Assembly (NCBI GenBank): GCA_017609645.1
Contig: JAFCDQ010000003.1
Coordinates: forward strand, 148,846-212,845
Length of the DNA: 64,000 nt
Reading direction: 5' to 3'
Source of the DNA: Candidatus Woesearchaeota archaeon
GTDB taxonomy: Archaea; Nanobdellota; Nanobdellia; Woesearchaeales; ARS49
Shown: one piece after another, positions 11,242-60,712 of the stretch
Layout: every line of letters starts with the position of its first letter
Position numbering within the stretch: the stretch's first letter is position 1
Made by a program: the position numbers and the translations under genes
The notes under the pieces: generated by a model
What the model was told of the DNA's origin: nothing
Databases searched by the model: none
What the model saw: only the letters and a program-made list of their open reading frames with translations

Positions 11242-11297
11242 ATTACCCCTTTTTTTACTTTTGCTGCCTTTTTTGAGCTTACTTTTATAGTCTTGCT

Positions 11298-11392
11298 AAC
11301 CGCGACAGGGGGTTGCCCCCTTCGGGGATGTCGCCACTCAAATAAACTTTGCAGTCAAGCGAATTGGCAGCAAAGTCTACCCCCTTGTTCCC
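11298..11392. other. GC-rich structured intergenic element (candidate small RNA, leader or attenuator) between the 297-aa membrane-protein gene and the 663-aa pilin-like gene
   Basis: The only strongly GC-rich island in the window. Outer stem GCGACA (11302-11307) pairs with TGTCGC (11329-11334) and encloses a GGGGG-UUG-CCCCC hairpin (11308-11320). That hairpin competes with a CCC-UUCG-GGG tetraloop hairpin (11318-11327). A second 7-bp stem ACTTTGC/GCAAAGT (11346-11352 / 11370-11376) has a 17-nt loop. I found no tRNA cloverleaf. Confidence 0.35.
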
Positions 11393-12286: not shown

Positions 12287-14811
12287 ATTAATGTACCATC
12301 TTCTGCATCTTCTGATTGTAAGTTATTTGCTGCCAGATTTCTTGAATCCATTGTGCTTGCCGGTCCTGCTCCTGCAAATGGCACACAATATTCACTTTTT
12401 GCACCTGGGAAATCTGCATCAGTCCATTGCATAGCTGCTGGAAGAAGTCCTCCTGTAATTGAACCAATTCCACCTAATATTGTTCTTGCCCATAAGTCTT
12501 CATAATCTTGAACAAATTCATCTATTTTTTCTTTAAACACTAAACAAATTTGATTATAATCTGTTGTGCTGTATTTGATAAAGTGTCTTGTTGCGCCTTG
12601 TCCTGGTTTGAGATATTTCCAGTCAGAGAACCATCTTGCTCGTCTTTCAGGGCCTCTGAATTCTACATTCACGTGCAAGTCTCTGTCTAATGGATTATTT
12701 ACTCTCATTTGTGCATTGTAAAGCCACATAGTGATTACTTCCATTTTCTTTATGTCGAGTTTTGGATCTGTGAAATCTACTTTTACACCGTCAATAAATG
12801 TCTGTTCTCCAAATAAATCTACTAATTCTTGTCTTGTTAATCCTTTGAATTCTATTGAGTCTGATCTCTCACCCACAAGTAAGGCAGCTCCCATTGGTGC
12901 TGCAGTGTCAGGCCCTTTTGTTAGCATGTAATTGCTTGGGCTTGAACTGATAAATCCTTCACATATATGTGATGTCCAGCATTCTTTTAATCCACCTATC
13001 ACACAGAATTTATCTTGAATCTCCTGCTTTCTCTTTGCAGCTTCTTGTAAATAATCAGAATCAAATATTAATGCGCTTAAGTATGCAAATCCCTTATATT
13101 GATTGAATGAATGTGTTAATACTCCTAGAAATCTCCACGTTCCCATTGCACTTATCTTTTTGCCTACAGAAACTGGCAAAGTTAAGTATATTGTTATCAT
13201 TTTTTGTTTGGCTTTTTCTAGCATTTTTTTCATTGCTGGAGTTAATCCTTTTTTTGCCAATAATGCATCATAAAGTTCATCAAATGTTAATGCTTTTCCT
13301 GTTGTTTTTGCTTTTGCTAATAAAGCATCTAATTCAGTATTCAATTTTTTTATAGACTCTCGTGATAATCCTTGCTCTTTTGCTGCATCTTCTAAGACTT
13401 TTTTCGCTTCCTCAAAAAGAGCAGTTGCAATTGCTAAATCTTCATCTGCTGTTGCTGAATCAAATCTTGCTATGTCTTCATTTTCCTCTGCTATTTCTAA
13501 CTTTACTTTATCTTGATCAAGCAATTTTTTTGCTTCTTCAATTGTATCAAGAGTTCGTTCTGCATCTGCTTTCATAACTTCTAATTTTGCTTTGTATTCA
13601 TTTTCCTTTGCTTGCTCTAGTTTTGTTTCTGCTTCATAAAAAGCTTGTTTTGCTTTTTGATATTCTTCTCCTGGTTTTGCTGTTGTTGTTGCTTCTTGTG
13701 CTTTGTCAAATTCAGTTAATGCCTTGGTATATGCAGTTACTGCAGTTTCATACGCTTTATCTGCTTCTATGCTTGCTAATGTATTTTGGTACAGTATTTG
13801 TGAATTTTGATATTTTGCTTCTGCATCTCTATATTCTTCTAGTACATAGTTATATACCTGCTCTGCTGATTCACTATATCGTTTTGCTTCATTTAGTTCT
13901 AACAGTTTTTTCCCTCTATCCATCTCTGCATTTTCTTTATCTTGTGTCGTTGCGTCTTCTATCACTTCCCATGCCAAAAGATCGTTGCTAACTTTTAGAT
14001 AGTCTTCGCCGATTTGTTCTACGGCTAAATCTATAAAATTTCCATCGTTATCAAGTGTATAAGACTTAAATGTGTCTTTGTCTTGCATTACATTAAAGAT
14101 TGTGTTCCATTTTCCTGCAATAAACACTTCTTCAGTACTTCCAATTTTGTTGCCTTGATAATATTGGTTTTTTATTTTTCTTTTTAATTGCCCTGTTTTT
14201 TTGTCAATTACTAACTCAACTTTTGAAACTTGATATCCTAAGTTTGCTTTTTTGTCTGCTTCTGATAATTCTTTATGCAGTTTACTTGCCTTGTCTAGAA
14301 CATATTCTTCTACTGTTCTTCTTAATTCACCATTAGCACTTAATTTGTTTTCAGTTCTTATTGTTGTTTTGTATTCTTTTAATCCTCTGCTCCATTCTTG
14401 TGTGCTTTTGCCCCAGTAATTTATGCTTCCATCTGCTTCAACTCTAAAAGAATCTGCTTTTTTGATATCTTCATATATATTTGAAGTTAGATATTTGTTT
14501 TGGACATATCCTTCAGCTTGTAAGTCTTTAGCACTTACAACGACATCTTTGATTTTGAGTTCTCCTTTTATTAAAGGAATAATTCTGTTATTCTTTGAAG
14601 AAACATAGTAGTCTGCACTACCTGGAGTTTGTTTCATTTTATCTGTCACTGTTTCTTTTGCAGGTTTAGGCGTGATTCCTATTTTATTATCTTCAATCAA
14701 CTTATTTACAGCTCCTTTTTCTGGAGCTTTAGTATCTGCTGCATAAGCTATAAAGCTACTTAAGAAAATCATGATTATCATTATTCCTATAAATCTTCTA
14801 GAATGGTTCAT
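12283..14811 (-). CDS. Large secreted protein (about 840 aa) with a central coiled-coil region of about 190 aa
   Basis: The track ORF extends to 14895. The in-frame Met at 14811 gives a signal peptide (MNHSRRFIGIMIIMIFLSSFIAYAA) and cuts the overlap with the upstream gene to 14 nt. The central segment is A/E/K-rich and heptad-like. Confidence 0.65.
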   Translation of the reverse strand: MNHSRRFIGIMIIMIFLSSFIAYAADTKAPEKGAVNKLIEDNKIGITPKPAKETVTDKMKQTPGSADYYVSSKNNRIIPLIKGELKIKDVVVSAKDLQAEGYVQNKYLTSNIYEDIKKADSFRVEADGSINYWGKSTQEWSRGLKEYKTTIRTENKLSANGELRRTVEEYVLDKASKLHKELSEADKKANLGYQVSKVELVIDKKTGQLKRKIKNQYYQGNKIGSTEEVFIAGKWNTIFNVMQDKDTFKSYTLDNDGNFIDLAVEQIGEDYLKVSNDLLAWEVIEDATTQDKENAEMDRGKKLLELNEAKRYSESAEQVYNYVLEEYRDAEAKYQNSQILYQNTLASIEADKAYETAVTAYTKALTEFDKAQEATTTAKPGEEYQKAKQAFYEAETKLEQAKENEYKAKLEVMKADAERTLDTIEEAKKLLDQDKVKLEIAEENEDIARFDSATADEDLAIATALFEEAKKVLEDAAKEQGLSRESIKKLNTELDALLAKAKTTGKALTFDELYDALLAKKGLTPAMKKMLEKAKQKMITIYLTLPVSVGKKISAMGTWRFLGVLTHSFNQYKGFAYLSALIFDSDYLQEAAKRKQEIQDKFCVIGGLKECWTSHICEGFISSSPSNYMLTKGPDTAAPMGAALLVGERSDSIEFKGLTRQELVDLFGEQTFIDGVKVDFTDPKLDIKKMEVITMWLYNAQMRVNNPLDRDLHVNVEFRGPERRARWFSDWKYLKPGQGATRHFIKYSTTDYNQICLVFKEKIDEFVQDYEDLWARTILGGIGSITGGLLPAAMQWTDADFPGAKSEYCVPFAGAGPASTMDSRNLAANNLQSEDAEDGTLI

Positions 14812-17800
14812 ATTCTGGTTCTCCTCCGTTTTCTCCAGACGCTGTTGTTTTATCATATTCTTCTGCCCATTCTTCCATTTCACCGCACCATTCATTTGTT
14901 ACCATTCCCATTTCATTTTGTCTGTTTGTCATTGCAGCAATACTTGCCCATGCTTCTCCTACTTCTGCAGCTACCCTATACAATGAGCATGCTGTATGAA
15001 TTTGTGCTGGTTTTGTTTCACAAGTCAAGTCACACCAGGTTCCAAAGAATGTTGTAACTATTGTCCATGGATTTGCTAGCATCTCACCTAGCATTTGACT
15101 GATTCCTTCAAAGAATTGTGAGAATGGTATTATGTCAAATAAGGGTCCGCCCCATACATATGCGCAGTTCATGTAATGATTTGTATCTTTGCAATAACTT
15201 ATTGGAACTCCTGTTTCTTTCCAGTCTTTTTCTAAGCAGGTTGCATATTTGCATTCTATTTGTGCTATTTTATTGATGTTTCTGATAATTCCTGGCAAAC
15301 AAAGACATGCCGTGCTTAAGTAAATATTATCTTTTATATTTGTATACATTCTCATGTTTCTTTCGCCTTCTCCGAGATTTCGCATGTTTCCTTGCATCAT
15401 TGCCCAGCCTGCTGTTAAGCTGCCACCTTGATCCATTATCCAGTCTTCAAATGCAGTGCACCATGGAGCTCCTCCTCCAACTAGATTTTCAATTCCCCAT
15501 TGGTCTTTTCCTCCGCTTGACTGACAATTTACTACAGCGCAGGCTTTGTCTAAGATTGTGTATAATGGAACTCCTAGTAATTTTTCTTCTTCAGGTATTA
15601 CTATTTTTTTGAATGAGGATTGTTTTCCTCCATATGCTCCGTCTATTTTTTCTTCTATTTCACATATTGGAGCTCTTGTGAGATAGATTGATTGGGATAT
15701 TGCAGGTCCAAAGACAGGAATGGCGCTTGTTGAGTCTTCCACGTTTCCTATTACTGCAACTAGTGCTGCTCCTGTTGATATTATGCTTGTTATGATTCCT
15801 TTCCATTCACATACTTCTTCTGCTATGTTAACTATTTCATTCATTGTTTCTAAAAGATCTGATTTAAGCACTCTTGCAGTATCCACAGCTTCTTTGATTG
15901 TTTTTTCTCTTCGTTCATAAATATCTCCAAGAGGCAAATCATAAAATTCTAAAAGAATGTCTACATCTTCTTCTTGAGGTGTTGTGTATATTGTTTGTTC
16001 TCTTTTTGAGTAGATTGTTAATGGACATGATAAGCTTAAATTATCTAGATAATAATCTCTTGCAGGAAGTTGTATCATAAAGTAGGGATTTGTGCTTCCT
16101 GGTGCTGTGTTTATTGTGCTTATATCGTCAATAAAGTTTGTTGTATTTCCAATACAATCATTTATTGATGTAGGTCCGATGATGCTTACTGTTTCTGCGC
16201 TTGAGCTTGTGCTTAAATCAACTTCACATACTACTCTTTGAGGTAGTTGTGATGTTGTTTTTCTGTCTATTGGCTGCGGCCTGCATGTTACATCACTTGT
16301 CCAGTATTTTCTTGCAGTGTCAACATCAAGTTCATATATTGTCATGTTGTATTCTGTTTCTGTTGTGTCATCAAATATGTCTGTGAATATGAAATTTATT
16401 GTTGCTTCTGCTGGTCCGCTTATGTCAACTACACTTTCAAACAAACATTCATCTAATCCTGTTATGCTGCTTAAGCTGCATTCAACAGCGTCTGAATCAC
16501 TTTCACCGCCTATTGCACTAAAGTCAGCAAAAGCATTTTCAAAGTTTTTGCTTTCTACAACAAATTGGACTGTGTCTCCTCTAACTGCTTCTCCTCCTAC
16601 ACCTTCTGGTCCTGGAATTACTATATAGTCTATTACTTTTGGTTTTAATGGTCCTTCGCTTTGATAAAATATTTCAAATTCTTGTCCAGAGTCTATTTTG
16701 TTTCCTAAATCATCTTGCGTGTCTGAGGATAATTCAAAATCATATATTCCTGAATTTGTTGTTAAGAAATTTGGATGTATGTTCCATTTGCAGTCCCATT
16801 TGTCAGCTGCAGTATTCTCGCACAAATCTGCTTGTAATTTTTTATCTGCAGATCTTCCTGTTAGATCATAAATGTTAAGATATGCTTTTCCTAGGTTCAT
16901 TCCTACTCCTGGATCACCGTCAGTATCTTTTTCTGAGAATATAATTGTGAAATAAGAATTATAAGCTGCTATTGGGTTTCCGTCTCCATCTACTGGCCCT
17001 TTTCCAATCTGAACAACAACAGGTGATTTATCATCTGCTTCTATATCAAAATCAAGTGTTCCTTGGCCTTGATTTCCTATGTTGTCTGTTGCTCTTACAA
17101 GTATTGTTCCAGAACTTTCTTCATCAACTTCCAGACCAGTCCAGTAATAAAAATTAGGAATTTGTTTATTTGAATAAGGAACTAATTGCACATTGTCATT
17201 AAATGGAGTTAGTTTTGCTTTTACTGTTGCATCTTCTATTCCGCTTAAATCAGTGATTTCTGCTCTGACACTTACTTGCTCGCTTCTTCCTGGCAGGACA
17301 TGTGTTATTTGTGCTCCTTCTGCATTTGTTAATGCTACTTCTATTGTTGGAGCTCCTTCATCTATGTAAAAATCATCACAAGCAGTATCTTCTCCGTCTA
17401 AGAAATCTCTAACAGTTGCGCATGCTCTTAGTTCATTTTCATCTCCATCATATATATAATCAAATCCTTCTGTTATTTCGCATTCTCCGGCCTCGCCTGT
17501 TATTGTTCCTACTTCTTCCATGTTAACATAGAATATGATTTCTTTTATTCCTGAGCATTCTGCTGATGCAGTTGTTGTGCCGTAATCTTTTGCCGTTACA
17601 GCAAAATTTACAGGGCCTGTTGTCATTTCTGGTTCTACATTAAAGCTTATTATTTCTGGGTCTGTATCATCTATGATTATTGTTTCTTCTAATGTTTCTC
17701 TTAAGATTGTATCTTGGTCATGAAGTGTTACTTTAAAGTCTATTTTTTCTTGTCCAATAAGATCTAATTCATCAGTATACGTGCAGGTGTAATAATCATC

Positions 17801-18055
17801 TGTTCCTTTTTGGCAAGTATCAAATGGCGCAAACACATTGCCTATCCAGAAGTTGACTCTTGATGGAAGTATGTTTTCATTTAACAGCATTGCTTTTGCT
17901 TTTATTGTCAAGGTATCTTTTGATCTTGCAAAGCCGTTTGCTTCATCTTCTCCGCTGTATCTGACCAGCTGCAAGTCAGATGTTTCTGCAATTGATATTG
18001 GAAGCAGAACTATCAGGATGATCATCATTATTGATATTTGTTTTTTTGAGTTCAT
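14798..18055 (-). CDS. Giant secreted protein (1085 aa) with acidic DxDxDG-like calcium-binding-type motifs and a Cys-rich C-terminal domain
   Basis: Signal peptide MNSKKQISIMMIILIVLLPISIAETS. Motifs DTDGDPGVG, PVDGDGNPI and DDTDPE are present. Its start overlaps the stop of the 711-aa pilin-like gene by 4 nt. Confidence 0.75.
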   Translation of the reverse strand: MNSKKQISIMMIILIVLLPISIAETSDLQLVRYSGEDEANGFARSKDTLTIKAKAMLLNENILPSRVNFWIGNVFAPFDTCQKGTDDYYTCTYTDELDLIGQEKIDFKVTLHDQDTILRETLEETIIIDDTDPEIISFNVEPEMTTGPVNFAVTAKDYGTTTASAECSGIKEIIFYVNMEEVGTITGEAGECEITEGFDYIYDGDENELRACATVRDFLDGEDTACDDFYIDEGAPTIEVALTNAEGAQITHVLPGRSEQVSVRAEITDLSGIEDATVKAKLTPFNDNVQLVPYSNKQIPNFYYWTGLEVDEESSGTILVRATDNIGNQGQGTLDFDIEADDKSPVVVQIGKGPVDGDGNPIAAYNSYFTIIFSEKDTDGDPGVGMNLGKAYLNIYDLTGRSADKKLQADLCENTAADKWDCKWNIHPNFLTTNSGIYDFELSSDTQDDLGNKIDSGQEFEIFYQSEGPLKPKVIDYIVIPGPEGVGGEAVRGDTVQFVVESKNFENAFADFSAIGGESDSDAVECSLSSITGLDECLFESVVDISGPAEATINFIFTDIFDDTTETEYNMTIYELDVDTARKYWTSDVTCRPQPIDRKTTSQLPQRVVCEVDLSTSSSAETVSIIGPTSINDCIGNTTNFIDDISTINTAPGSTNPYFMIQLPARDYYLDNLSLSCPLTIYSKREQTIYTTPQEEDVDILLEFYDLPLGDIYERREKTIKEAVDTARVLKSDLLETMNEIVNIAEEVCEWKGIITSIISTGAALVAVIGNVEDSTSAIPVFGPAISQSIYLTRAPICEIEEKIDGAYGGKQSSFKKIVIPEEEKLLGVPLYTILDKACAVVNCQSSGGKDQWGIENLVGGGAPWCTAFEDWIMDQGGSLTAGWAMMQGNMRNLGEGERNMRMYTNIKDNIYLSTACLCLPGIIRNINKIAQIECKYATCLEKDWKETGVPISYCKDTNHYMNCAYVWGGPLFDIIPFSQFFEGISQMLGEMLANPWTIVTTFFGTWCDLTCETKPAQIHTACSLYRVAAEVGEAWASIAAMTNRQNEMGMVTNEWCGEMEEWAEEYDKTTASGENGGEPEYEPF

Positions 18056-20187
18056 CTTAATACTGGTTTTAATAATGGCGCTTTAGCGATTGATTCATCT
18101 TTTATTTTGGTTATTTGGTCTAAATCTTCTATAAATCTTTGATCTTGAGGTACTTTGTCTATTGCAAGTGAAAAATATGTAAGCAGTAATTCTTCAGAAT
18201 CATATAGTTTATCAGGTGTGACTGTGAAGTCTATCTCCATCATAGTTGTTGGAAATGGATTTTCTGCATTAAATATCATGTCTTCTGGAGGTAGGTCATA
18301 CGATCTTCGTTTAGTTATAGGAATAAGTCCAAATATTTTTTCTGGTTCTATATATCTTGTGTCTTTTGGTATTACTATGTTTTTTGTTAAAAAGCCTGTT
18401 ATGGTGATTTTGTAGTTTCCTGGGATTAATGTTATTGTGTTTTCTTTTCCTCCTGATAAATCTGTTATTGCTGCAAAATCATCTTCAAACTGGCCTGGTT
18501 CTTTTGTAATCATAACCATCAATTCTTCTTCTTTATCTACTGGATGAAACTCGGTTGTATCTAGTTTCCATTTTCTTACTCCTTCTTTTTCATACAAATA
18601 TTTTCTGGCATTTACTTTGAGTTCTTTTTCTGGATACATTGTTATTGCAAGTTTTCCTTCTTTATCTCCTGTTGTTAATGGAGCATATATTGTCATGTAT
18701 CCTTGTCTTTTGATTTCTAATAATCCGTTCAAGCATCTTGGGAATTTAGAATTAAATATTCCTTGTGCTGTTGTTCCTAGCGCACATGCTGTGTCTCCAC
18801 AAGTGTAGATTATTGATGCATCATCTATGAATTCTTTTGTTGCATAATCTTTCAACTCGATATTTATTTCTCCGCTTGTTCTTTGGTTTGCTTTGCAGAA
18901 TAGGTTAGAGTCAAGATTTTTTAATGCTGCTGCCAGTTTTGTGTTTGATGTGAATGGATTATTATTTCTTAGGTTTGCTTCTAAGAAGAATTTAAAGCTG
19001 TATCCTTTGCCGCCTAGTGCATTTGGATTTGTTATCTCAACTAATACAGGTATGCTTATGTCATATGCAAAATTGTATTTTTGTATTCCAAATATGAAGA
19101 AGCTTTCTGATAATAATGAATTGTCAGGCCTGCATAATTCTCCGTCACAGTTTAAGTCTATGTAGGGTTTCCACCAGTCAAGATAATAAAATCTGACTTC
19201 TAAATCAGGATGAGGCGTGTCCATTGGTATTAAGAACTGTCTGTTGTACATTAGTTCATATGCTTCTGCATCTCTCACACCAGGTGGAGAAGGAACATAG
19301 TTGAAGTTTCTTGTTCCGCTTAATTGTAATAATGGAATATAGCTTGTGAGCATTTGAGTGATTTTCTTTTGTACTTTACTTTTTAACCAAAAGGTTTCTT
19401 TGCCTGTTTCAAATGTCATGTCAGATACAGGAGGCAGTGCATTTTTGTCAAGCTCAGAGAATGAATAAACCAGTTCTTTTATTGCATTTTCCAAGAAGGT
19501 GTATTCTATTTCTATGTTTGTTATGTCTGTTGCTAAATCATATATTTCTTTTAGGTTTACATTCACTGTTGCTGCAAAGTTAGCTAAGTCTTGTGTTGTT
19601 TTGTCTTTTGTTGCTTCTAACTCCCAATCTAATGAAATTAGAATGTCATTATCGCGGATGATTAATTCCACGTCAGGTCTTGATTTTTCTTCAACAACAT
19701 AGCCTTGTTCTCTTAATCCTGCAAAATTGTTGACGCATGCTGCAATGTTTTCTTCTACATAATCTGTTAATTGTTCTTCTATGTTTATTTTTCTTCCTGA
19801 GTATAGTTCAGGTCTTTTTGTTTCAAATGCACATTTGTCCTGGCATTTGTTTGGACTTTGCATATACCACCAATATGGTGATACAGGACCTTTCCCTCCT
19901 AATGATACTGCATCTGCTTCTGTTGGCGCATAAGGATTTTGTGCATAGTCAGGCAGGATATATCCTCCTTGCGAGCCTAATAAGTCAAGTCCATCTATTG
20001 TTGTTTTCTTGATGCAGAGCAGCACATAACTTGTTACAGGATCTGCTTCTGCGATTGGCACTACAGGAGTTATTGCTTTTCTTTCTATTGGTTTTTCCGC
20101 AACCTGAACAAAATAGATGACTAAAGCTATTGTGATTAATAGAATTATTCCTATTATAATGAACAATGTTACTTGTCCTTTTCTCAT
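18052..20187 (-). CDS. Large (711 aa) protein with a class III (type IV prepilin-like) signal peptide; paralog of 9250..11241
   Basis: N-terminus MRKGQVTLFIIIGIILLITIALVIYFV. A Shine-Dalgarno-like AGAGGAAAC precedes the ATG. It shares the N-terminal domain with the 663-aa paralog. Confidence 0.7.
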   Translation of the reverse strand: MRKGQVTLFIIIGIILLITIALVIYFVQVAEKPIERKAITPVVPIAEADPVTSYVLLCIKKTTIDGLDLLGSQGGYILPDYAQNPYAPTEADAVSLGGKGPVSPYWWYMQSPNKCQDKCAFETKRPELYSGRKINIEEQLTDYVEENIAACVNNFAGLREQGYVVEEKSRPDVELIIRDNDILISLDWELEATKDKTTQDLANFAATVNVNLKEIYDLATDITNIEIEYTFLENAIKELVYSFSELDKNALPPVSDMTFETGKETFWLKSKVQKKITQMLTSYIPLLQLSGTRNFNYVPSPPGVRDAEAYELMYNRQFLIPMDTPHPDLEVRFYYLDWWKPYIDLNCDGELCRPDNSLLSESFFIFGIQKYNFAYDISIPVLVEITNPNALGGKGYSFKFFLEANLRNNNPFTSNTKLAAALKNLDSNLFCKANQRTSGEINIELKDYATKEFIDDASIIYTCGDTACALGTTAQGIFNSKFPRCLNGLLEIKRQGYMTIYAPLTTGDKEGKLAITMYPEKELKVNARKYLYEKEGVRKWKLDTTEFHPVDKEEELMVMITKEPGQFEDDFAAITDLSGGKENTITLIPGNYKITITGFLTKNIVIPKDTRYIEPEKIFGLIPITKRRSYDLPPEDMIFNAENPFPTTMMEIDFTVTPDKLYDSEELLLTYFSLAIDKVPQDQRFIEDLDQITKIKDESIAKAPLLKPVLR

Positions 20188-27643: not shown

Positions 27644-29950
27644 TTATTTGGAATTAGAATCTTTTTTCTCTATTTTTTTTAAAGTTCTCTCTTTTCCAAG
27701 TTGAGCTAACATATCTTCAGATCCTATTTTTAGAGCTGTTTCATAAGAAGTAAGTGCTTCGTCTAATCTATCTACTCTTTGTAGAACATCTCCTCTAAGA
27801 ATATAAGGCAATGCATCATCAGGATATAACTCTATTGCTCTTTCATAAAACTTAAGTGCTTCTTCCAATTTTCCTGATCTTTCTAAAATACTTCCTTCCT
27901 TACAATAAGGAATTCTTGTTAGAATTTTGGTTTTGTAATCTTCATAATCATCACATTCAGTATTTTCATTTTCTTCTTTTTGTTGTTCTAGTTTTCTTTC
28001 AACTTTTCTTTTAAAAACTTCATAAAATTCTTTTTTCCTTGGCTTTAATTCAATTGCTTTATCATAATATTTATTTGCTTCTTCTAGCTTACCCAATTCT
28101 TCTAACGCCTCTCCTTTACTACAATAATAATGTGCTTTTTCTGGATCTAGGTCTATTGCTAAATCATACTGTTCAATGGCGTCTACTAGTTTACCTAATT
28201 TCCTCAATGCGTCTCCTTTACTACAATAATAATGTGCTTTTTCTGGATCTAGGTCTATTGCTAAATCATACTGTTCAATTGCATCTTTGAATTCTCCTAA
28301 TTCTTCTAAAGCCACTCCTTTTGTAAAATAAAAAAAAGAATCATTTGGTTCAATCTCAATTGCTTTATTATAAAATTCAATTGCTTTTTCAGGATTATCT
28401 TCTTCAATTTCTTGGCCTTTAAGCAAAAAAGAAAAAGCATCTTTTTCTCTCTCAATATTAGAACTTTCACCCCTCTTTTTGAAATCCAAATCTATTACCT
28501 CTTCAGAAACTTTTTGTTCTAATAAAGATGAGTCATCATTTTTTGTTAAAATATCTAAATTAATTAAAGCATCAATAAAATCATCTATCGTTTGATATCT
28601 ATCTTCAGGATAAAATTCTAATCCTTTTTCAATTACTTTTATTATTTTTCCATCAACTTTTGCTTTTTTCAGTGCATTGTAAATTCCCTGAGGACCTGGG
28701 CCTATATTTACTCCTAATGGTTTGCCTGTTAATAACTCATAAAATATTTTGTTTAAAGAAAAGATATCGCTTTTTTCTGTTGGTTTTTTTCCATTTAATT
28801 GTTCAGGAGACATATATAGAAGTGTCCCTTCAAATTCTTTGCTTTGCACAGTCATTATAGACTTTAATGTTTCTGGATTTGACAAAATTTTAGCAAGGCC
28901 AAAATCACAAACCTTAACTTCTAAGTCATCATTTACAAGAATGTTTTCCGGCTTTATATCTGCATGAACAACCCCTTTAGAATGCGCATAAGACAATGCA
29001 TTAGCGACTTGACTTATGATTTTTATTGTTTTTTCTTGGGTAAAATCATTTATCTTTTCTCTTAAATTTGTTGAATTCTCAAAATATTCCATCAATAAGT
29101 ATGGAAATCCCTCTCTTTGAACATGTTCAACAAGAAGTATATTCTCATGCGTTCCTAAACATTTATGCGCCTCAGCTTCTTTAAGAAGTTCGTAACTAGC
29201 ATTAGGTTTTGGGAACTTCATAGTTTTTAAGATATTAGTTTCAGTTTTGACTTTCCAAACAACACCAAAACCCCCTTCACCAATTTTCTCTTCTAAGGTA
29301 TAACCATCAATAATTTGTCCAGAGCTTAAATTTAAAGCTCTTCTTGAGCTTCTTTTAGTTTTAGAAGAAGCAATAAGTTCTATAACATTCAGTTTGCTTT
29401 CTTTTTCAACACTTTCAATATACTTCTTAGCCCAGTTTTCTATTTCTTTAGGAGCTCTCTTAGAGGTTCGTAATTCTGCTTGTAAATTTAATTTAAGTTC
29501 TTCTGTTAATTTATCAAGATTATCAAAAGAATATTTAATCCATCTCTGATTACGCAGATCGGTTGCTTTTTTTAAAGCCTCATCTAAGTCTTGTGAAATA
29601 AACAATATTGGTTTTTTTTGACCAATTAAGAAACCTGTTTCAAGCATCACATTTTCATTTATTTTTTGGCCTTCTTTTTTACTTAAACTCATATCAGAAA
29701 TTCCCATAGTGGCGTACTCTGCAGCAAGTTGGATATCTTCCCAGATAGAACCTTCCCCTAATAAACGCGTAGCACTAAGCACATTTATGCTATATTCCCC
29801 TAAATTTAAACTAGCGTCTTCAATTGCTTTTAGAATTTCTTCAAAATCCTCATTATATTCCTGAGCTACAAATATATAAGGTATTTCTAGCTGAATTTTT
29901 TCTTCTAGTTTAAGTAAATCAAAATACTTCTGTCGAACAACGTTTCCCAT
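27644..29950 (-). CDS. Multidomain signalling protein: N-terminal TIR-like / nucleoside 2-deoxyribosyltransferase-like domain, Hanks-type Ser/Thr protein kinase, C-terminal TPR repeats
   Basis: Kinase motifs GEGGFGVVWKV, HADIKPENILV and DFGLAK. The N-terminus has NENVMLETGFLIGQKKPILFI, which resembles the NDT/COG4271 TIR-like motif. The C-terminus has 34-aa TPR units (AIEQYDLAIDLDPEKAHYYCSKG...). Confidence 0.85.
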   Translation of the reverse strand: MGNVVRQKYFDLLKLEEKIQLEIPYIFVAQEYNEDFEEILKAIEDASLNLGEYSINVLSATRLLGEGSIWEDIQLAAEYATMGISDMSLSKKEGQKINENVMLETGFLIGQKKPILFISQDLDEALKKATDLRNQRWIKYSFDNLDKLTEELKLNLQAELRTSKRAPKEIENWAKKYIESVEKESKLNVIELIASSKTKRSSRRALNLSSGQIIDGYTLEEKIGEGGFGVVWKVKTETNILKTMKFPKPNASYELLKEAEAHKCLGTHENILLVEHVQREGFPYLLMEYFENSTNLREKINDFTQEKTIKIISQVANALSYAHSKGVVHADIKPENILVNDDLEVKVCDFGLAKILSNPETLKSIMTVQSKEFEGTLLYMSPEQLNGKKPTEKSDIFSLNKIFYELLTGKPLGVNIGPGPQGIYNALKKAKVDGKIIKVIEKGLEFYPEDRYQTIDDFIDALINLDILTKNDDSSLLEQKVSEEVIDLDFKKRGESSNIEREKDAFSFLLKGQEIEEDNPEKAIEFYNKAIEIEPNDSFFYFTKGVALEELGEFKDAIEQYDLAIDLDPEKAHYYCSKGDALRKLGKLVDAIEQYDLAIDLDPEKAHYYCSKGEALEELGKLEEANKYYDKAIELKPRKKEFYEVFKRKVERKLEQQKEENENTECDDYEDYKTKILTRIPYCKEGSILERSGKLEEALKFYERAIELYPDDALPYILRGDVLQRVDRLDEALTSYETALKIGSEDMLAQLGKERTLKKIEKKDSNSK
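28101..28269 (-). repeat. Identical 67-nt segment repeated at 102-nt (one TPR unit) spacing inside the kinase gene
   Basis: 28101-28167 equals 28203-28269 exactly; both encode TPR units, which suggests recent unit duplication or gene conversion. Confidence 0.8.
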
Positions 29951-55004: not shown

Positions 55005-56708
55005 TTATTTTGGTCTGTAAACTGTTGCATGTTTTGCATTGTCTTCTGCAACTTTTGCTTTCTTGCCTTGCATATATTTCTCTACACCCTCTTTAACTTC
55101 GTCGTGTTTTAATCCAAGTATTTTTGCTGCAGCTAAAGCAGAATTAGTTCCGCCATATGCAACTGTTGGAGCAACTCCGCTTGGTGTTTGTAAAGAACTC
55201 CAAACTTCATTTGAATCTTTGTCAGATTTATTTTCATAATTAATTATCACTGGATTTAATGTCCTTGCTGCAATAGAAGGTCCTTTTCCATTTGACATTC
55301 CTGTTACATCAATGTAAATAATATCTCCTGAATAAGAATCAAACCAGTCTACTAATTCAAATAAACTTTCAGGATCTCTATGTGCTGATGCAACATTTAT
55401 TCCATGAGGTATATTTAATGCTTTTAATGTTTTTGAAATGTTTTTCACAGGAGACTTTTCCTTCTCAATATCACTTCCAGATCCTGCAATTATTGAAACA
55501 AAATATCCTTTTATTAATTTGTCATTTTGGCTATATGTACAATTTAGATTATGGCAGACTATATGTGACTGATCAAAGTAAGAATCTCCAACTTTTAATC
55601 CTTCTACAACATCGTCTAAATCAGCACCTGTCAAAAATTCATGTGCTTGGCAAATTATTTTTGCTGCTTCTAAACGAACAGAGTCAGGCAATACAACTCC
55701 TTTCTTTTTCCATAAACCTGCCTCTTGCAGATATTTTCTAACATATTCTTTGTCAAAAGCTTGAGGCTCTTCTTCTGCTTCAAATCTTTCTTGATAAGTT
55801 TCTAATTCCCAAAATCTTGAAGAATCTGTTGTAAACCATTCATCAGCTAAAACTACACAATCAGCAGGCTCAGTATAATTTATTTTTTGCTCTTTTGTGT
55901 ATTTTCTGACTCCCCATTCAAACTTTGTGTCAACAAATATTTTGCCTTTTTTCGCTAATTCTTCTGCTCCTAATTTATATAATTTTTTTGAACAATCAAT
56001 CACATAATCAAGAACATTTCTATCACTAATTGAAGCACTCAATAGCAAAGATCTCTCTTCTTCACCCTCGACTATAGGCAGAGGTAAAACAATCTTATTA
56101 AATCTCTTTTGCAAAAATTCATATGCCTCTTCAACAGTTATGCCAGGATCTCCGTCTGCTTTTGTTGTTATTGTAACAATTGGCTTAACAAACTTTGCAT
56201 TTTTCTTTATCTCGCCACCTTCAAACATGTCTGGCGTTAGTTCAATACCATATTGTTCATAGAATTTATTGTTTGTTGAAGAATGCCTCTTTCCATAATC
56301 TATAATTTGATTAAAATCTCGCCAAGCAGATCCTGTTATAAATCCCCTAACTATTACTTCTAATCCTAAAGTATGTAATTGCTCAATAAGCATTGAATTT
56401 GTAGTTAATCTTTTTTTTAGATGATGCTGACAAATCTGCTCTTCTTCAATCTTTTTTGCCCAATATTCCTGAACTTCAACAAATAAAGCTCCTTTAAGCG
56501 GAATAGCACCAGTAAGTTCTACATCTCCTGCAGAAATCCTGTCTGTTGTGAATTGTATTCCTTCTATATCATTTATCTCATAATTATCTCTTACTTTGCC
56601 TTTATGAAAGCCTCCCTCAGGCACTCCTAACTCTGGAAAGCATGTTGTTTCAAGAACTCTATTTTCTTCAATCATAATTTTTAATGTTTCATCTACAGAC
56701 ATTTGCAC
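55005..56708 (-). CDS. purCE: Bifunctional SAICAR synthetase (eukaryotic Ade1-like PurC) fused to AIR carboxylase (PurE); PAICS-like domain order
   Basis: N-terminal GKVRDNYEI...TTDRISAGDV matches the SAICAR synthetase fold. The C-terminal IAGSGSD...SAHRDPE...AYGGTNSALAAAKILG matches PurE. Confidence 0.8.
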   Translation of the reverse strand: MQMSVDETLKIMIEENRVLETTCFPELGVPEGGFHKGKVRDNYEINDIEGIQFTTDRISAGDVELTGAIPLKGALFVEVQEYWAKKIEEEQICQHHLKKRLTTNSMLIEQLHTLGLEVIVRGFITGSAWRDFNQIIDYGKRHSSTNNKFYEQYGIELTPDMFEGGEIKKNAKFVKPIVTITTKADGDPGITVEEAYEFLQKRFNKIVLPLPIVEGEEERSLLLSASISDRNVLDYVIDCSKKLYKLGAEELAKKGKIFVDTKFEWGVRKYTKEQKINYTEPADCVVLADEWFTTDSSRFWELETYQERFEAEEEPQAFDKEYVRKYLQEAGLWKKKGVVLPDSVRLEAAKIICQAHEFLTGADLDDVVEGLKVGDSYFDQSHIVCHNLNCTYSQNDKLIKGYFVSIIAGSGSDIEKEKSPVKNISKTLKALNIPHGINVASAHRDPESLFELVDWFDSYSGDIIYIDVTGMSNGKGPSIAARTLNPVIINYENKSDKDSNEVWSSLQTPSGVAPTVAYGGTNSALAAAKILGLKHDEVKEGVEKYMQGKKAKVAEDNAKHATVYRPK

Positions 56709-56788
56709 TCACCTCATATCGTTATAAAAACACTATAACCCTTTTTTATATACCTTTTTCGCCACAACAAAATATACTTTCTAGGCTC

Positions 56789-56828
56789 TAAAGCGTCATA
56801 AAGCTTCGTAAAGCTATCTAAAGCTTTG
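56789..56828. repeat. Four tandem 10-bp units TAAAGC-N4 (TAAAGCGTCA TAAAGCTTCG TAAAGCTATC TAAAGCTTTG), with further degenerate TAAAG copies out to 56860
   Basis: TAAAG recurs at 56789, 56799, 56809 and 56819 (exactly 10-nt phasing), then at 56833, about 56844 and 56856. The repeats lie in the 275-nt divergent intergenic region upstream of the GHKL ATPase genes. Confidence 0.5.
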
Positions 56829-56910
56829 TTTCTAAAGTTTCTAAAAGTTTGTTTATAAAGTAAAAAATCTATGTATATTACAGCACCCAAGCTGAAATCC
56901 CTTCCCCACC

Positions 56911-56936
56911 CACTCTTGCGTTATTACGCAAGAGTG
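56911..56936. promoter_or_regulatory. GC-rich perfect 11-bp inverted repeat CACTCTTGCGT-TATT-ACGCAAGAGTG, 48 nt upstream of the ATG at 56984
   Basis: The arms are exact reverse complements. The local sequence is GC-rich against an AT-rich background. Confidence 0.5.
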
Positions 56937-56983
56937 ATGAAAACACCGAAAGATTTAAATATGAGTGAGACTGAACTAACACT

Positions 56984-57862
56984 ATGATGCACAAAAGATT
57001 AGAGGAGTTAGCAATAGATACAATCAGCGGTATTAATTATCGAGATAGATCTCACATTAAAGGTATTTTAGATAAATCTTATAAAGTAAATTCTAACAGT
57101 CCTTGTGTTAGCATACAAGAAAATATTTACGGACCTGATTCTAGATTTATTCTTTATCTTGATGCAAAAGACAGAATTTCATATGAAGGTGCTGTTACAA
57201 AAGCTATTTTGATTCCTATTATGCATGAATTATCTCATAATATTCAAAAACAATACCAAAAAATGCAAAAAGAACAGCAATTATCCCTATTTCTTCCTTT
57301 TATTTCTTTCATAGGCTTGAGAAAAAGCAGAGAAAAATATGAAGAACATGGTGTCAAAAAAGAAAATGAATTTTATATTTTTGATTTTGCAGATACCGGA
57401 TTGGGTATTCCAAATACTAAAATAGCTGCTTTACAAGGAAAAGCATTGCTTGCTGATACACAACTAAGCAATAAACTTCCTGAAGAAATACAAAAAGAAC
57501 TAATTAGAATGACTGTTGAAAGTGACGTTACAGAAGAAACAGGCGGAATGGGATTAACCATGGCTTATAGAACTTGTAAAACATCAAAAGGAATTTTTTA
57601 TATTGCTTATGATTTCAGAGAAAATGGTAATGGAAGAAATTGTGCTTTATTCACATCTCTCAATCCAACACATATTAGAAAAACAAATAGAAAACCTATT
57701 AAAAAAATTGATAATTTTTTAGAAAATAGAACTAAAACACATGTAAGAGTTTTTATTCCTACTGATTATGTGTTAACTATTGAAAAGTATTTGATTGAAA
57801 ATTCTGAAACTTTTCAAATACTAGACTCAAAACAAAAATTAGAATTTTTAAAAGATCAATAA
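56984..57862 (+). CDS. Divergent GHKL / histidine-kinase-like ATPase (HATPase_c-like) protein, soluble, with a possible H-box
   Basis: G1-like FDFADTGLGIP and G2-like GGMGLTMAY. The upstream IPIMHELSHNIQ resembles a HisKA H-box. No TM segment or sensor domain is recognisable. Confidence 0.55.
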   Translation: MMHKRLEELAIDTISGINYRDRSHIKGILDKSYKVNSNSPCVSIQENIYGPDSRFILYLDAKDRISYEGAVTKAILIPIMHELSHNIQKQYQKMQKEQQLSLFLPFISFIGLRKSREKYEEHGVKKENEFYIFDFADTGLGIPNTKIAALQGKALLADTQLSNKLPEEIQKELIRMTVESDVTEETGGMGLTMAYRTCKTSKGIFYIAYDFRENGNGRNCALFTSLNPTHIRKTNRKPIKKIDNFLENRTKTHVRVFIPTDYVLTIEKYLIENSETFQILDSKQKLEFLKDQ

Positions 57863-57872
57863 AGAGAAGACC

Positions 57873-59375
57873 ATGGTAGATTATATCGAATACGATGCAA
57901 ACGCTGCAAGAGAATTTATTGCATTAATTAAAAAAAGAATTGATAGGTTAACCCCTGCTAAAACTAAAGAATTCTTAAAAGAACTAAATGAAATTGATGA
58001 GATTCATATAAAAGAAGCTGCTAAAGATATTCTTTTCTTTTCAAAACTAGAACGTATTGATCCAGCAGTCTCATTTATTATTGAACAAAAATATCTTTTA
58101 AATGATAAAACATTAAGACCTACATCAGAAGATATTCAAACAGAATATAATACTAACCTTGATGATGAAGCTTCTGCTCTAAACTTTGAAGATATTCCTG
58201 CATTAGAAAGAGCAGGTTTAGAACAAATTGTTGATCCTTTAAAAAATAAAAAAGGTTTAGGTCACATAAGTTATGTTTTTGATAATCTGCGCGAATTAAC
58301 TCCTAAAAGTGTTGCTAATTTTATTATTGAACAAACAATTGCAAGAATAGTTAGAAAACCAAATCGTAAACTTAAAATAGTTGAGAAACACCCAGTTGGT
58401 CTGCCTAAGAAATACAAAGAAGCATGTAAAAAGTTGAGCGGTCAATCAGGCCAAAAAATTACAAAAAATATCACCATCAATATTGGAAAAGAAAAAAATC
58501 AACTCAAACCAACAGACGAAGCAAAGTTGATTTACAGTCTTAATGCTAATGATAAATTCCATAGTATCTACTTGCCTTTTTTCTTTGGAATGTATGGTGT
58601 TAAAGAAATTACTGAAAACTCAGTCAAACAATATGATAAACTAAAAAAGAAAGGCGAGTGTTCAAAAGATAATCCTTTCTTGATGTTGGTTGGCGCAAAG
58701 AAGATATCTGATCAAAGATACAGTACTAGTCAGCGTTTAAAAGCTATTAGATTAGAAGCTTTGACTGATAAAGTTCAAACAGAGGATACAAAAAAAGAAT
58801 CAGCTACTGAAAAAAAAGAAAAAGCAAGTGTTTTCTTGTTTGAATTTGCAGATACTGGAGAAGGGTTTACCAGAGATCAATTACAGAATTTATATAATAG
58901 AATTTATCAAGCAATGATTGTAGATGCAACTGACGAAACAAAATCATTCAAAAAAACTTTAACAAAAGGGAGTGCTAAAGAGAAACACGGAGAAATAGGA
59001 CTTGCTGGTTCTGCTAAAATCTTTGCACAGACTTTCGGAGGAACTTTTGAAATAAATTCTAATTATCACTCTATTGACGGAGTATTATACAAAGATTCAA
59101 TTATTTGTAATAGTGACAAATATGAATTTAAACCACATCAAAAAGCAGTTCAAAGAGATTATGATATTCAGAATGTAATGCAAAAAAGAGCTAAAACTTA
59201 CATTAATATTCAATTAACAGAACATAGTCTGCGTGATCTTGATAAAATAATTCTCGAAAAGCAAAAATATGCTGCTGCAGAAAGACCTCTTGTTTATGAT
59301 GAAAACGATATGACTGAAACATCTGTACTGGAAACTGTTGATTTTGATGAATTTGTATTTCCAGAAGAAATGTAA
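57873..59375 (+). CDS. Second divergent GHKL / HATPase_c-like ATPase protein (500 aa)
   Basis: FEFADTGEGFTRDQL (G1-like) and GEIGLAGSAKIF...GGTFEI (G2/G3-like). It lies 10 nt downstream of the previous gene, with a long N-terminal region of unknown function. Confidence 0.5.
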   Translation: MVDYIEYDANAAREFIALIKKRIDRLTPAKTKEFLKELNEIDEIHIKEAAKDILFFSKLERIDPAVSFIIEQKYLLNDKTLRPTSEDIQTEYNTNLDDEASALNFEDIPALERAGLEQIVDPLKNKKGLGHISYVFDNLRELTPKSVANFIIEQTIARIVRKPNRKLKIVEKHPVGLPKKYKEACKKLSGQSGQKITKNITINIGKEKNQLKPTDEAKLIYSLNANDKFHSIYLPFFFGMYGVKEITENSVKQYDKLKKKGECSKDNPFLMLVGAKKISDQRYSTSQRLKAIRLEALTDKVQTEDTKKESATEKKEKASVFLFEFADTGEGFTRDQLQNLYNRIYQAMIVDATDETKSFKKTLTKGSAKEKHGEIGLAGSAKIFAQTFGGTFEINSNYHSIDGVLYKDSIICNSDKYEFKPHQKAVQRDYDIQNVMQKRAKTYINIQLTEHSLRDLDKIILEKQKYAAAERPLVYDENDMTETSVLETVDFDEFVFPEEM

Positions 59376-59377
59376 AA

Positions 59378-60712
59378 TTATTTTCTAAAAACCAAACCCT
59401 TTATCGCAGTCACTGCATCATTTATTTGTTCATAACAAGGAATTCCTTTCTCTTTTAGCTTTTTAGAAATCTTGTCAGCAAGTCCTGTTCCTGTCACAAC
59501 AGCAATTAATGGCTTTTTCTTAGCATCAGCACAGATTTTATTTGCTAATCTTTCATTAATTAAAGGAACTTGTGTTAATATTAAAACTAATATCAAATCA
59601 TTATTCTTGTCTTTTGCACAGGCTTTAATCGCTAAGTCATATCTTTCATTTGTTGAATCTCCTAGTAAATCCATAGGGTTATTTACAGAAACTATTGCTG
59701 GAAATTTCTTATTCAACTGTTTAACACATCTTTTGCTTGGCTGCACTAGCCGAAGTCCTGCTTTCTCTAACAAATCAGCTGCATTGATTCCATACCCTCC
59801 TCCATTGGTAATCACTTGGATTTTATTTCCTTTTGGCAGATTCTTAATTTTTTCAAAAGCTTCTGCCATGATAAACATTTCTTCAATACTTTTAACCTGA
59901 ATACAGCCAGCCTGACGCAAAGCACCTAAATAAATCTCTCCACTGCCTGCTAAACTGCCTGTATGACTCTTTGCCGCAGCTCTTCCTGCAGAAGTCATTC
60001 CTCCTTTCAAAACAATTATAGGTTTTTTTATCTTCTTAGCAACACGAACAAACCTTTGTCCGTCTTTAATTTGTTCTATATACATGCAGATTACTTTTGT
60101 CTTCTTATCTTTGCCTAAATATTCTAAAATATCTGTTTCATTCACATCTATCGCATTTCCATAACTGACAAATTTTGAAAATCCCAAATGTTTTTTAGAA
60201 GCTAAATCAAGTATCATCGCTCCAAGTGCTCCGCTCTGTGAAACAAGAGAAATATCTCCTTTTTTTGGTCTGTGCAGTCTTTGCTTGAGCATGAACATAG
60301 TGTCAACATCAGAATAAGAATCAAATACACCTAAACAATTTGGTCCTATTACTCTTAATTTATATTTATCAATAACTTTCTCTAATTCTCTCATTAATTT
60401 CAAATTACCAACTTCTTTAAAACCAGCACTAATAATAACAACATTCTTAATTCCCTTCTGACCACATTCATCTAAAATTCCAGGAACTGTCTTTGCAGGT
60501 GTTGCTATGACCGCTAAATCTATTTTTCCTTTAACTTGTAAAACATTTGAATAACATTTCTTGCCATAGATAGATTTAGCTTTTGGATTGACACAAAACT
60601 CTGAAAATTTCTTATCAAGCAAATTCCTAAAGATAACATTACCTATCTTTCCAGGGAATCTAGAAGCTCCTACCACCACCACTTTTTTTGGATTGAAAAA
60701 CTTATCAAGCAT
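59378..60712 (-). CDS. acdA: Acetyl-CoA synthetase (ADP-forming) alpha subunit / CoA-binding NDP-forming acyl-CoA synthetase
   Basis: N-terminal FNPKKVVVVGASRFPGKIGNVIF...LAVIATPAKTVPGILDECGQKGIKNVVIISAGF matches ACD alpha subunits; 444 aa. Confidence 0.85.
   Translation of the reverse strand: MLDKFFNPKKVVVVGASRFPGKIGNVIFRNLLDKKFSEFCVNPKAKSIYGKKCYSNVLQVKGKIDLAVIATPAKTVPGILDECGQKGIKNVVIISAGFKEVGNLKLMRELEKVIDKYKLRVIGPNCLGVFDSYSDVDTMFMLKQRLHRPKKGDISLVSQSGALGAMILDLASKKHLGFSKFVSYGNAIDVNETDILEYLGKDKKTKVICMYIEQIKDGQRFVRVAKKIKKPIIVLKGGMTSAGRAAAKSHTGSLAGSGEIYLGALRQAGCIQVKSIEEMFIMAEAFEKIKNLPKGNKIQVITNGGGYGINAADLLEKAGLRLVQPSKRCVKQLNKKFPAIVSVNNPMDLLGDSTNERYDLAIKACAKDKNNDLILVLILTQVPLINERLANKICADAKKKPLIAVVTGTGLADKISKKLKEKGIPCYEQINDAVTAIKGLVFRK

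Follow-up and report, generated by a model that had tools for sequence, protein, structure and literature searches.

The question raised by this locus is what kind of protein is encoded by P1 and P2, two adjacent genes of a small genome from a DPANN (Woesearchaeota-like) archaeon, which an initial annotation had described as highly divergent GHKL ATPases. We analysed the whole stretch of 64 kb that contains them, hereafter the window. Both open reading frames were recovered as described, with a gap of 10 nt (57863-57872) between them, and the peptides quoted from them were confirmed, namely FDFADTGLGIP and GGMGLTMAY in P1, and FEFADTGEGF and GEIGLAGSAKIF in P2 (Table 1). Both products are predicted to be soluble, as had been claimed, with a maximum Kyte-Doolittle 19-residue mean below 1.0. 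The ten genes around P1 and P2 are housekeeping genes (purB, purD, a purC-purE fusion, rpoF, L21e, SepF, EndoV, ZPR1 and an ADP-forming acetyl-CoA-synthetase-like gene, ACS-like). Searches against Pfam, NCBIfam, PADLOC and PHROGs gave nothing above threshold for P1 or P2, phmmer against the PDB returned nothing relevant, and no further member of the P1/P2 family was found among all six-frame ORFs of the window by phmmer/hmmsearch.

Table 1. Coordinates of P1 and P2, their motifs and the upstream elements within the window.
Feature	Position	Strand	Remarks
Four TAAAGC motifs	56789..56824		exact 10-bp spacing; purCE/P1 divergent intergenic region
Perfect palindrome/hairpin CACTCTTGCGT-TATT-ACGCAAGAGTG	56911..56936		11-bp stem; unique in the window
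BRE/TATA-like putative promoter element CCGAAAG-A-TTTAAATA	56946..56961	+	centre ~26 nt before P1 ATG
P1, short-form GHKL-like protein	56984..57862	+	ORF, 292 aa; paralogous to P2
P1 motif I / N-box E82-L-S-H-N86-I-Q-K89-Q-Y91	57227..57256	+	E, N, K, Q, Y invariant across family
P1 strand + G1 box F133-D-F-A-D137-T-G139-L-G141	57380..57406	+	invariant A-D-x-G-x-G
P1 G2 box G187-G-M-G190-L	57542..57556	+	invariant G-x-x-G; 50 residues past G1 Asp
P1 motif IV candidate K251-T252	57734..57739	+	invariant K-T; start of last predicted strand
P2, long-form GHKL-like protein	57873..59375	+	ORF, 500 aa; orthologs P0003, P0004
P2-specific helical N-terminal extension	57873..58295	+	residues 1-141; absent in short forms
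P2 motif I / N-box E245-I-T-E248-N249-S-V-K252-Q-Y254	58605..58634	+	invariant; cf. MutL KELVENSLDA
P2-type helical insertion	58704..58820	+	~40 residues (roughly 278-316); beta-hairpin between motif I and G1
P2 strand + G1 box F323-E-F-A-D327-T-G329-E-G331	58839..58865	+	invariant
P2 G2 box G373-E-I-G376-L	58989..59003	+	invariant; 46 residues past G1 Asp
P2 G3-like strand G389-G390-T-F392-E-I-N-S	59037..59060	+	G390, F392 invariant
P2 motif IV candidate K441-T442	59193..59198	+	invariant
P2 acidic C-terminal tail, ending F-x-F-P-E-E-[M/Q]-COOH	59280..59372	+	conserved in P0002, P0003, P0004

P1 and P2 proved to be homologous across ~265 residues (BLASTP E 2e-6), P1 being the more divergent paralog, with 25% identity to the 266-aa short form of the L006 locus. 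Word-indexed searches recovered only P0003 and P0004, which are 65% and 64% identical to P2, respectively. No family member was found in a first scan of genome contigs; profile-guided contig scans added L006 and L008, plus the histidine kinase L007, and an exhaustive profile scan covering 1.84 billion proteins yielded, in addition, a histidine kinase and a single partial short form. One family member is labelled Woesearchaeota. The family is very small and, if the assignment holds, confined to a few DPANN archaea. The position of the genes is fixed, between purC and the ACS-like gene, where three arrangements occur (short only, long only, short and long). The P2 ortholog of L003 is preceded by a P1-like C-terminus. 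P1 is missing from the L001/L002 lineage and is thus dispensable there. P2 is under purifying selection (dN/dS 0.09-0.31), and the family evolves fast, with 25-30% identity as compared with 64-79% for the flanking proteins.

Overall identity within the family is only 22-30%, yet the D-x-G-x-G and G-x-x-G motifs and the E-x-x-x-N helix are retained in every member found, and since P1 and P2 are homologous, this invariance places the motifs beyond chance. The Glu and Asn of motif I are present in all five aligned members (E82/N86 in P1, E245/N249 in P2 and E77/N81 in the short form), and the G1 box, invariably A-D-x-G-x-G, follows a predicted strand in the models of both P1 and P2. The G2 box reads G-x-x-G-[LI] throughout, the third Gly of G-x-x-G-x-G not being kept, and the lid, which spans 46-50 residues from G1 to G2, is unusually long. 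The last predicted strand of both models opens with an invariant K-T, a candidate equivalent of the Thr of GHKL motif IV. Conservation of the G-box residues in homologs, on which the initial annotation had staked its proposal, was thus borne out.

Profile and structure searches led to the same superfamily. Pfam HATPase_c matched four of the five members at E ~1e-3, below its curated threshold, and the sole extra-family match among the 1.84 billion proteins was a hybrid histidine kinase (E 2.3e-4). With hhalign, the family aligned to kinase catalytic domains at 96.8% probability, through G1, the F-box, G2 and G3, for three kinase sequences of which two were chosen because they already matched. 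The matches to HATPase_c and to the histidine kinases P0006 and L007 fall in the G1 region of P2, and in the hhalign alignment the G2 box and the G3-like strand of P2 fall on the kinase G2 and the kinase strand GG-x-l-x-v-x-S. A profile search of the PDB placed the GRP94 N-domain on top at a sub-threshold E of 0.03-0.05. Foldseek with the P2 model returned Hsp90/HtpG/GRP94 N-domains as eight of the top nine matches and MutL at rank 7, the first four having E values of 2e-4 to 6e-4, and MutL, topo II, SMCHD1 and MORC were among the structural matches; the corresponding fold search with the P1 model gave essentially noise. Since both models derive from 4-sequence alignments and are of low confidence (pLDDT 46.6 for P2 and 34.4 for P1), the fold searches count as supporting evidence only. 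The N-box helices of the kinases and of GRP94 were aligned to the P2-type insertion in mutually inconsistent registers; we rejected these alignments as spurious, because neither P1 nor the 266-aa short form has the insertion, and because the invariant E-x-x-x-N precedes it. Each of the links to GHKL proteins is, taken singly, sub-threshold or dependent on a low-confidence model.

The general proposal of divergent GHKL/Bergerat-fold ATP-binding proteins is nevertheless supported, as the motifs are invariant and independent methods converge. We regard P1 and P2, with confidence about evenly balanced, as paralogs in a very small family that evolves quickly, its members being soluble, stand-alone nucleotide-binding proteins of the Bergerat (GHKL) fold. 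By analogy with other GHKL proteins, they would bind ATP, close the lid and dimerise, presumably as homodimers in one-gene species and as a P1:P2 heterodimer in this genome, whose closely spaced P1 and P2 genes are probably co-transcribed. P2, in which the two acidic residues of motif I are retained (E245 and E248), may be the more hydrolysis-competent subunit; in P1, the second of them is His. GHL ATPases use a Lys/Arg of the transducer to contact the gamma-phosphate; the family has no transducer to provide it, and hydrolysis may therefore be weak or absent. The output would probably pass through the extra parts of P2, its 141-residue helical N-terminal extension and its acidic C-terminal tail. 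A separate gene homologous to the extension was not found in any of the DNA collected for the analysis.

The alternative that fares best, though unlikely, is that P1 and P2 are GHKL-type Ser/Thr protein kinases, similar to RsbW/SpoIIAB or mitochondrial PDK/BCK, in which a single transducer-less Bergerat domain phosphorylates a partner with the motif I Glu as the general base. Such kinases would account for the architecture, one Bergerat domain with short flanks and no transducer, as well as for a motif I in which the third residue after the Asn is basic (N-x-x-K), a feature also of histidine kinases (N-A-x-K-Y), and the best sequence-database matches are indeed kinase catalytic domains. In PDK, motif I reads N-A-M-R, again with a basic residue in that position. 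However, neither HATPase_c_2 nor any kinase-specific profile was matched, the conserved neighbours include neither a STAS-type gene nor any other candidate for a substrate, and the lid measures 46-50 residues against 24-29 in the three histidine-kinase sequences compared. The RsbW-like option raised earlier was not sustained, with HATPase_c_2 unmatched and the conserved neighbourhood free of STAS or sigma partners; to our knowledge, archaea have no sigma factors. In addition, the second acidic residue of motif I is present here, whereas it is reported to be absent in mitochondrial kinases (PMC13614785).

A role in transcription would involve the DNA upstream of P1, which the initial annotation had taken for an elaborate leader. 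This DNA sits upstream of the BRE/TATA-like element, and the short distance of that element from the P1 ATG makes the supposed leader more likely to be promoter/operator DNA of a leaderless mRNA than a 5' UTR. The element, a putative promoter judged from its sequence, is kept upstream of the P2 ortholog in L001/L002 and is repeated in L003 between the P1-like gene and P2; in this genome, P1 and P2 would probably be co-transcribed from it as one leaderless mRNA starting at about 56984. A further TATA-like box upstream, at about 56846, is another candidate for setting the transcription start. The palindrome may act as an operator in the DNA or as a hairpin in the RNA; it lies in a 121-nt fold with z = -4.5, and in L001 it persists with CAC/GTG replaced by CCC/GGG. 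The TAAAGC array holds three overlapping exact matches, against about one expected with one mismatch allowed, and its motifs are partly conserved in L001. An Rfam scan of 55500-60500 detected no RNA family. Apparently unusual conservation of the upstream intergenic region (88%) was rejected, because two identical sequences had inflated the figure; the pairwise identity is 75%, the same as in coding DNA. P2 might be a transcription regulator that senses ATP or purine nucleotides through a GHKL sensor joined to an HTH-like N-terminal domain, is modulated by P1, binds the phased TAAAGC repeats and/or the palindrome in the intergenic DNA that it shares with purCE, and controls the purine-biosynthesis genes and itself, which we consider improbable. 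Slightly more doubtful is the wider proposal of a new minimal GHKL module serving DPANN archaea as a purine-nucleotide sensor and transcriptional regulator of purine biosynthesis, its long form carrying an HTH-like N-terminal domain that would bind the TAAAGC repeats and the palindrome, and with P1 as a modulating heterodimer partner.

It is equally doubtful that convergence or chance explains the likeness to GHKL proteins and that P1 and P2 have another fold and function. One could point to profile matches that all stay below the curated thresholds, to two poor structure models, to the lysine/glutamate-rich sequence (EKKEKE) that contributes to the kinase match, and to N-box alignments to the P2 insert that disagree between targets, but chance would then have to produce four correctly ordered and plausibly spaced motifs, all invariant at this level of identity, a predicted secondary-structure order that fits the Bergerat topology in both models, and the convergence of independent methods on GHKL domains. 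Finally, P1 and P2 are not two-component histidine kinases, and the orphan pair once suggested, autophosphorylating on His and signalling to a distant receiver protein, is very improbable despite the weak HATPase_c similarity, the histidine kinases as best database matches, and a His (H45) common to the P2 orthologs in a long predicted helix: no HisKA/DHp profile of Pfam was matched even at E up to 10, no His is invariant in the region common to short and long forms, the supposed H-box IMHELSHNI of P1 is really the N-box (motif I) helix, with K/S and E/D in homologs in place of H81 and H85, receiver domains are lacking both in the window (zero by phmmer/hmmsearch of all six-frame ORFs, in line with the initial annotation) and among the neighbours in related loci, and two-component systems, generally missing from lineages of this kind, were not detected in finished Nanoarchaeota and Nanohaloarchaeota genomes (PMC5847659).

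The family comes from DPANN archaea with reduced genomes and very few regulatory proteins. If the assignment holds, its members, which span 266-500 aa and exist naturally in short, long and paired forms, provide a compact model for exploring the capabilities of a Bergerat domain on its own; little follows in practice from a tiny family without known phenotype. We assigned no GHKL subclass, because the motifs form a mosaic, and the family HMM scored ~0 bits or below against E. coli HtpG, MutL and EnvZ (GyrB not reported) and thus did not discriminate subclasses. With the catalytic domain of histidine kinases (HATPase_c, PF02518), the only Pfam family matched, the proteins share the alignable order of strand, G1, F-box, G2 and G3, an N-box with N-x-x-K and an aromatic residue, the GG-x-F-x-I-x-S strand and the lack of a transducer. 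Unlike histidine kinases, they have no DHp/HisKA, conserved phospho-acceptor His or receiver partner, they carry Glu instead of Asn four residues before the Mg-binding Asn, and their lid exceeds that of the three kinases by 15-25 residues. Hsp90/HtpG/GRP94 proteins differ by their middle and C-terminal domains, for which only 30-60 residues remain after the ATPase core in these shorter proteins, and PF00183 was not matched; archaea, as far as we know, generally lack Hsp90. Membership in the Hsp90 and MutL families was not supported, and neither was the MORC/paraMORC option, as no family profile was matched and the defining extra domains are absent; HATPase_c_3, DNA_mis_repair and PADLOC also gave no match. 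Motif I of the family reads K-E-[IL]-T-[ED]-N-S and comes close to the K-E-L-V-E-N-S of MutL, and the second acidic residue, immediately before the Mg-binding Asn, a trait of MutL, GyrB and MORC (PMC13614785), is E/D in P2, P0003, P0004 and the short form. In contrast to the GHL ATPases (MutL/MORC/GyrB-TopoVIB), the family has K instead of D at +3 of motif I and no S5-fold transducer domain, for which there is no room, as P1 ends 40 and P2 58 residues past motif IV. RsbW/SpoIIAB and PDK/BCK are similar as small soluble Bergerat domains without transducer or DHp, and they have E-x-x-x-N with a basic residue shortly after; they differ in profile, in their much shorter lid and, for RsbW/SpoIIAB, in the STAS or sigma partner genes that are missing beside P1 and P2, and none of our tests supported membership among these kinases. 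If the assignment holds, P1 and P2 represent a minimal GHKL branch that has not been described before, in which traits of the ATPase class, a MutL-like motif I and an Hsp90-like lid length, are mixed with a trait of the kinase class, the lack of a transducer.

Both open reading frames that the initial annotation had described were recovered at the same coordinates, with the same G1-like and G2-like peptides and the same 10-nt gap, and both encode proteins predicted to be soluble, as neither has a hydrophobic segment that could span a membrane (maximal 19-residue Kyte-Doolittle mean below 1.0). Judged from sequence, the short-form protein P1 and the long-form protein P2 are paralogs. P1 52-272 aligns with P2 216-462 at 22% identity (BLASTP, E = 2e-6), and P2 adds three parts to a P1-like body: an N-terminal extension of 141 residues, a ~40-residue helical insertion within the hairpin that precedes G1, and an acidic C-terminal tail. 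The terminus of this tail, F-x-F-P-E-E-[M/Q]-COOH, is kept in all three P2 orthologs, and we take it to resemble partner-docking C-terminal peptides, for example the Hsp90 EEVD, a TPR-binding motif.

Features of the P1/P2 locus and of the surrounding window
Feature	Position	Strand	Detail
Large-ORF run	2405-20187	-	2282, 663, 870, 1085, 711 aa
Kinase/TPR protein	27644-29950	-	768 aa
PurC-PurE	55005-56708	-	567 aa
TAAAGC array	56789-56824		four motifs, exact 10-bp spacing; purCE/P1 divergent intergenic region
Palindrome	56911-56936		perfect 11-bp stem, 4-nt loop; just upstream of BRE/TATA element
BRE/TATA-like element	56946-56961		CCGAAAG-A-TTTAAATA; centre ~26 nt before P1 ATG
P1	56984-57862	+	292-aa ORF
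P2	57873-59375	+	500-aa ORF
P2 acidic tail	59280-59372		residues 470-500
Motif I / N-box	short-form numbering		E77-x-x-x-N81-x-x-K84-Q-Y, invariant
G1	short-form numbering		A-D124-x-G126-x-G128, invariant
G2	short-form numbering		G171-x-x-G174, invariant
G3-like	short-form numbering		G187-x-F189, invariant
Motif IV candidate	short-form numbering		K235-T236, invariant

We propose, with about even confidence, that the pair forms a GHKL-type switch, which would bind ATP, close its lid and dimerise in the general GHKL manner, as a homodimer in single-gene lineages and as a P1:P2 heterodimer in the window genome. The catalytically more complete subunit would be P2, whose N-terminal extension and acidic tail would carry the output. 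An RsbW/PDK-like protein kinase seems unlikely. The family K-Q-Y after the motif I Asn resembles the N-A-x-K-Y of kinases more than the x-x-D-A of GHL proteins, the strand past G2 (GG-T-F-E-I-x-S) is kinase-like, and just 40-58 residues lie beyond motif IV, so that a transducer domain is lacking, as in the kinase class. In the family motif I, a second acidic residue (His in P1) adjoins the Asn, a feature reported to be common to MutL, GyrB and MORC and absent in Hsp90 and the mitochondrial kinases (PMC13614785).

Several results, none of them decisive singly, agree that the family (P1, P2 and their homologs) very probably has the GHKL fold, and a protein outside this superfamily altogether is quite improbable. 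The residues that stay invariant, at an overall identity of 22-30%, are the Bergerat ATP-site set in the correct order. HATPase_c was the sole Pfam family matched, by four of the five members (E ~1e-3; 18.8-20.1 bits, under the cutoff of 26.4). When 1.84 billion representatives were scanned exhaustively with an HMMER profile, four proteins were recovered, P1, the P2 ortholog P0004, the partial short form P0005 and, as the sole outsider, a hybrid histidine kinase (E 2.3e-4) aligned over a strand, G1 and the F-box. Furthermore, hhalign against three kinase catalytic domains gave 96.8% probability, an optimistic statistic since two of these references were chosen for similarity; the alignment runs on through G2 and G3, regions outside the original matches, and implies a lid insertion of 15-20 residues. 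In a PDB profile search, the GRP94 N-domain ranked first (E 0.03-0.05).

True histidine kinases are hardly credible. The P1 segment IMHELSHNI, previously read as a possible H-box, is the motif I helix with the invariant E82 and N86, and both of its His residues are replaced in homologs (H81 by K or S, H85 by E or D). No HisKA-type profile matched, even at E up to 10, and no invariant His occurs in the region common to the short and long forms. In line with the initial annotation, which saw no response-regulator partner, no receiver domain was detected within the 64-kb window when every six-frame ORF was searched by phmmer/hmmsearch. This result, together with the report that two-component systems went undetected in the finished genomes of Nanoarchaeota and of Nanohaloarchaeota (PMC5847659), leaves a histidine-kinase reading unsupported. 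The initial interpretation is borne out in part: it named the superfamily correctly, but its suggestion of an orphan phospho-signalling pair found no support.

The family is new, very narrow and divergent within the well-known GHKL superfamily. Among 5.8 billion clusters, word-indexed searches yielded P0003 and P0004 as the only P2 orthologs (64-65% identical) and no match to P1. Profile-guided DNA scans recovered a full-length short form of 266 aa from the related loci L006 and L008, as well as one bacterial histidine kinase (L007), and phmmer/hmmsearch of all six-frame ORFs found no third member in the window. Only two relatives are labelled, a 'Candidatus Woesearchaeota' MAG protein and a contig binned 'Methanosarcinales'. 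L008 (CAYPUD010000044.1, 'uncultured Methanosarcinales archaeon') is probably mis-binned; the ORFs that it shares with L006 are all identical in translation, and its family protein starts with the exact sequence of the Woesearchaeota-labelled protein. Its purC ORF is broken into two pieces by a frameshift or assembly error.

The gene occupies the same slot in every lineage, divergent from purC and convergent with an ACS-like gene, beyond which lie rpoF, L21e and SepF. The short form stands alone at L004, L005, L006 and L008, the long form alone at L001 and L002, and both occur in the window and at L003, in which the P2 ortholog follows a P1-like C-terminus. The 80-nt gap of L003 contains a repeated BRE/TATA element, whereas the window's spacer retains only the ribosome-binding context of P2, AGAGAAGACC-ATG, and P1 and P2 are therefore likely co-transcribed in the window.

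The ten surrounding genes are housekeeping, including purB, purD, a purC-purE fusion, RpoF/Rpb4, L21e, SepF, endonuclease V, ZPR1 and an ADP-forming acetyl-CoA-synthetase-like CoA-binding protein, and this set identifies the source as archaeal (GC ~31%). In PurC-PurE, SAICAR synthetase is fused with AIR carboxylase; its identity to the stand-alone PurC of two close relatives, L001 and L006, is only 24-28%, whereas those two PurC proteins share 61% and all other flanking proteins 64-90%; purC/purE looks replaced or strongly remodelled at a conserved position. Elsewhere, a series of very large ORFs is practically without Pfam matches, the exception being one borderline Ig-like domain of the 2282-aa protein, and possibly encodes surface or host-interaction proteins of a type typical of DPANN archaea. 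As for signalling, the window gave a single recognisable protein, a fusion of a Hanks-type Ser/Thr kinase with multiple TPR repeats.

Flanking proteins keep 64-79% identity between the window and L006, and the family protein only 25-30%. P2 is, by its substitution pattern, a real gene under purifying selection, with a Nei-Gojobori dN/dS of 0.31 against L001 and 0.09-0.11 against L003 (neighbours, 0.06-0.14), and its amino acids change ~1.5-3 times faster than those of its neighbours. P1 is faster still: over the only 39 residues that can be compared it is 44% identical, and P2 between the same two genomes 64%. Against L001 (10001-11479), the dS of P2 (0.55) lies below that of the neighbours (0.86-1.57) and its dN is higher, possibly reflecting recent inter-lineage exchange or nucleotide-level constraint.

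Promoter/operator DNA fits the palindrome and TAAAGC motifs better than the elaborate leader described earlier. The position of the BRE/TATA-like element suggests, from standard archaeal promoter geometry, that the P1 mRNA is leaderless; a long leader, from an upstream TATA-like box at ~56846, is a possible alternative. The palindrome, the only one in the window (regional fold, z -4.5), may be either an operator or an RNA hairpin, and the TAAAGC array looks like candidate transcription-factor sites on one helix face. L001 retains the palindrome with a compensatory-looking stem change (CAC/GTG to CCC/GGG) and keeps the array in part; both are absent from the short-form lineage, and Rfam found no RNA family in this region. 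Exceptional conservation of the intergenic region was rejected, as its pairwise identity to L001 (75%) is no higher than that of coding DNA.

Finally, we file the family as a divergent, unclassified GHKL group outside any named subfamily, because its features are mosaic, its HMM scored ~0 bits or below on HtpG, MutL and EnvZ (GyrB not reported), and defence-system and phage profiles did not match P1 or P2. Compared with real E. coli sequences, the family combines traits of several GHKL classes: beside the kinase-like traits, its motif I, K-E-[IL]-T-[ED]-N-S, nearly matches the K-E-L-V-E-N-S of MutL, its lid (G-[MF]-T-R-D-[EQ], T-K-S-F-x-x-[ST]-L) echoes Hsp90, and its G1-to-G2 spacing is 46-50 residues, as against 41 in HtpG and GyrB, 35 in MutL and 24-29 in kinases.
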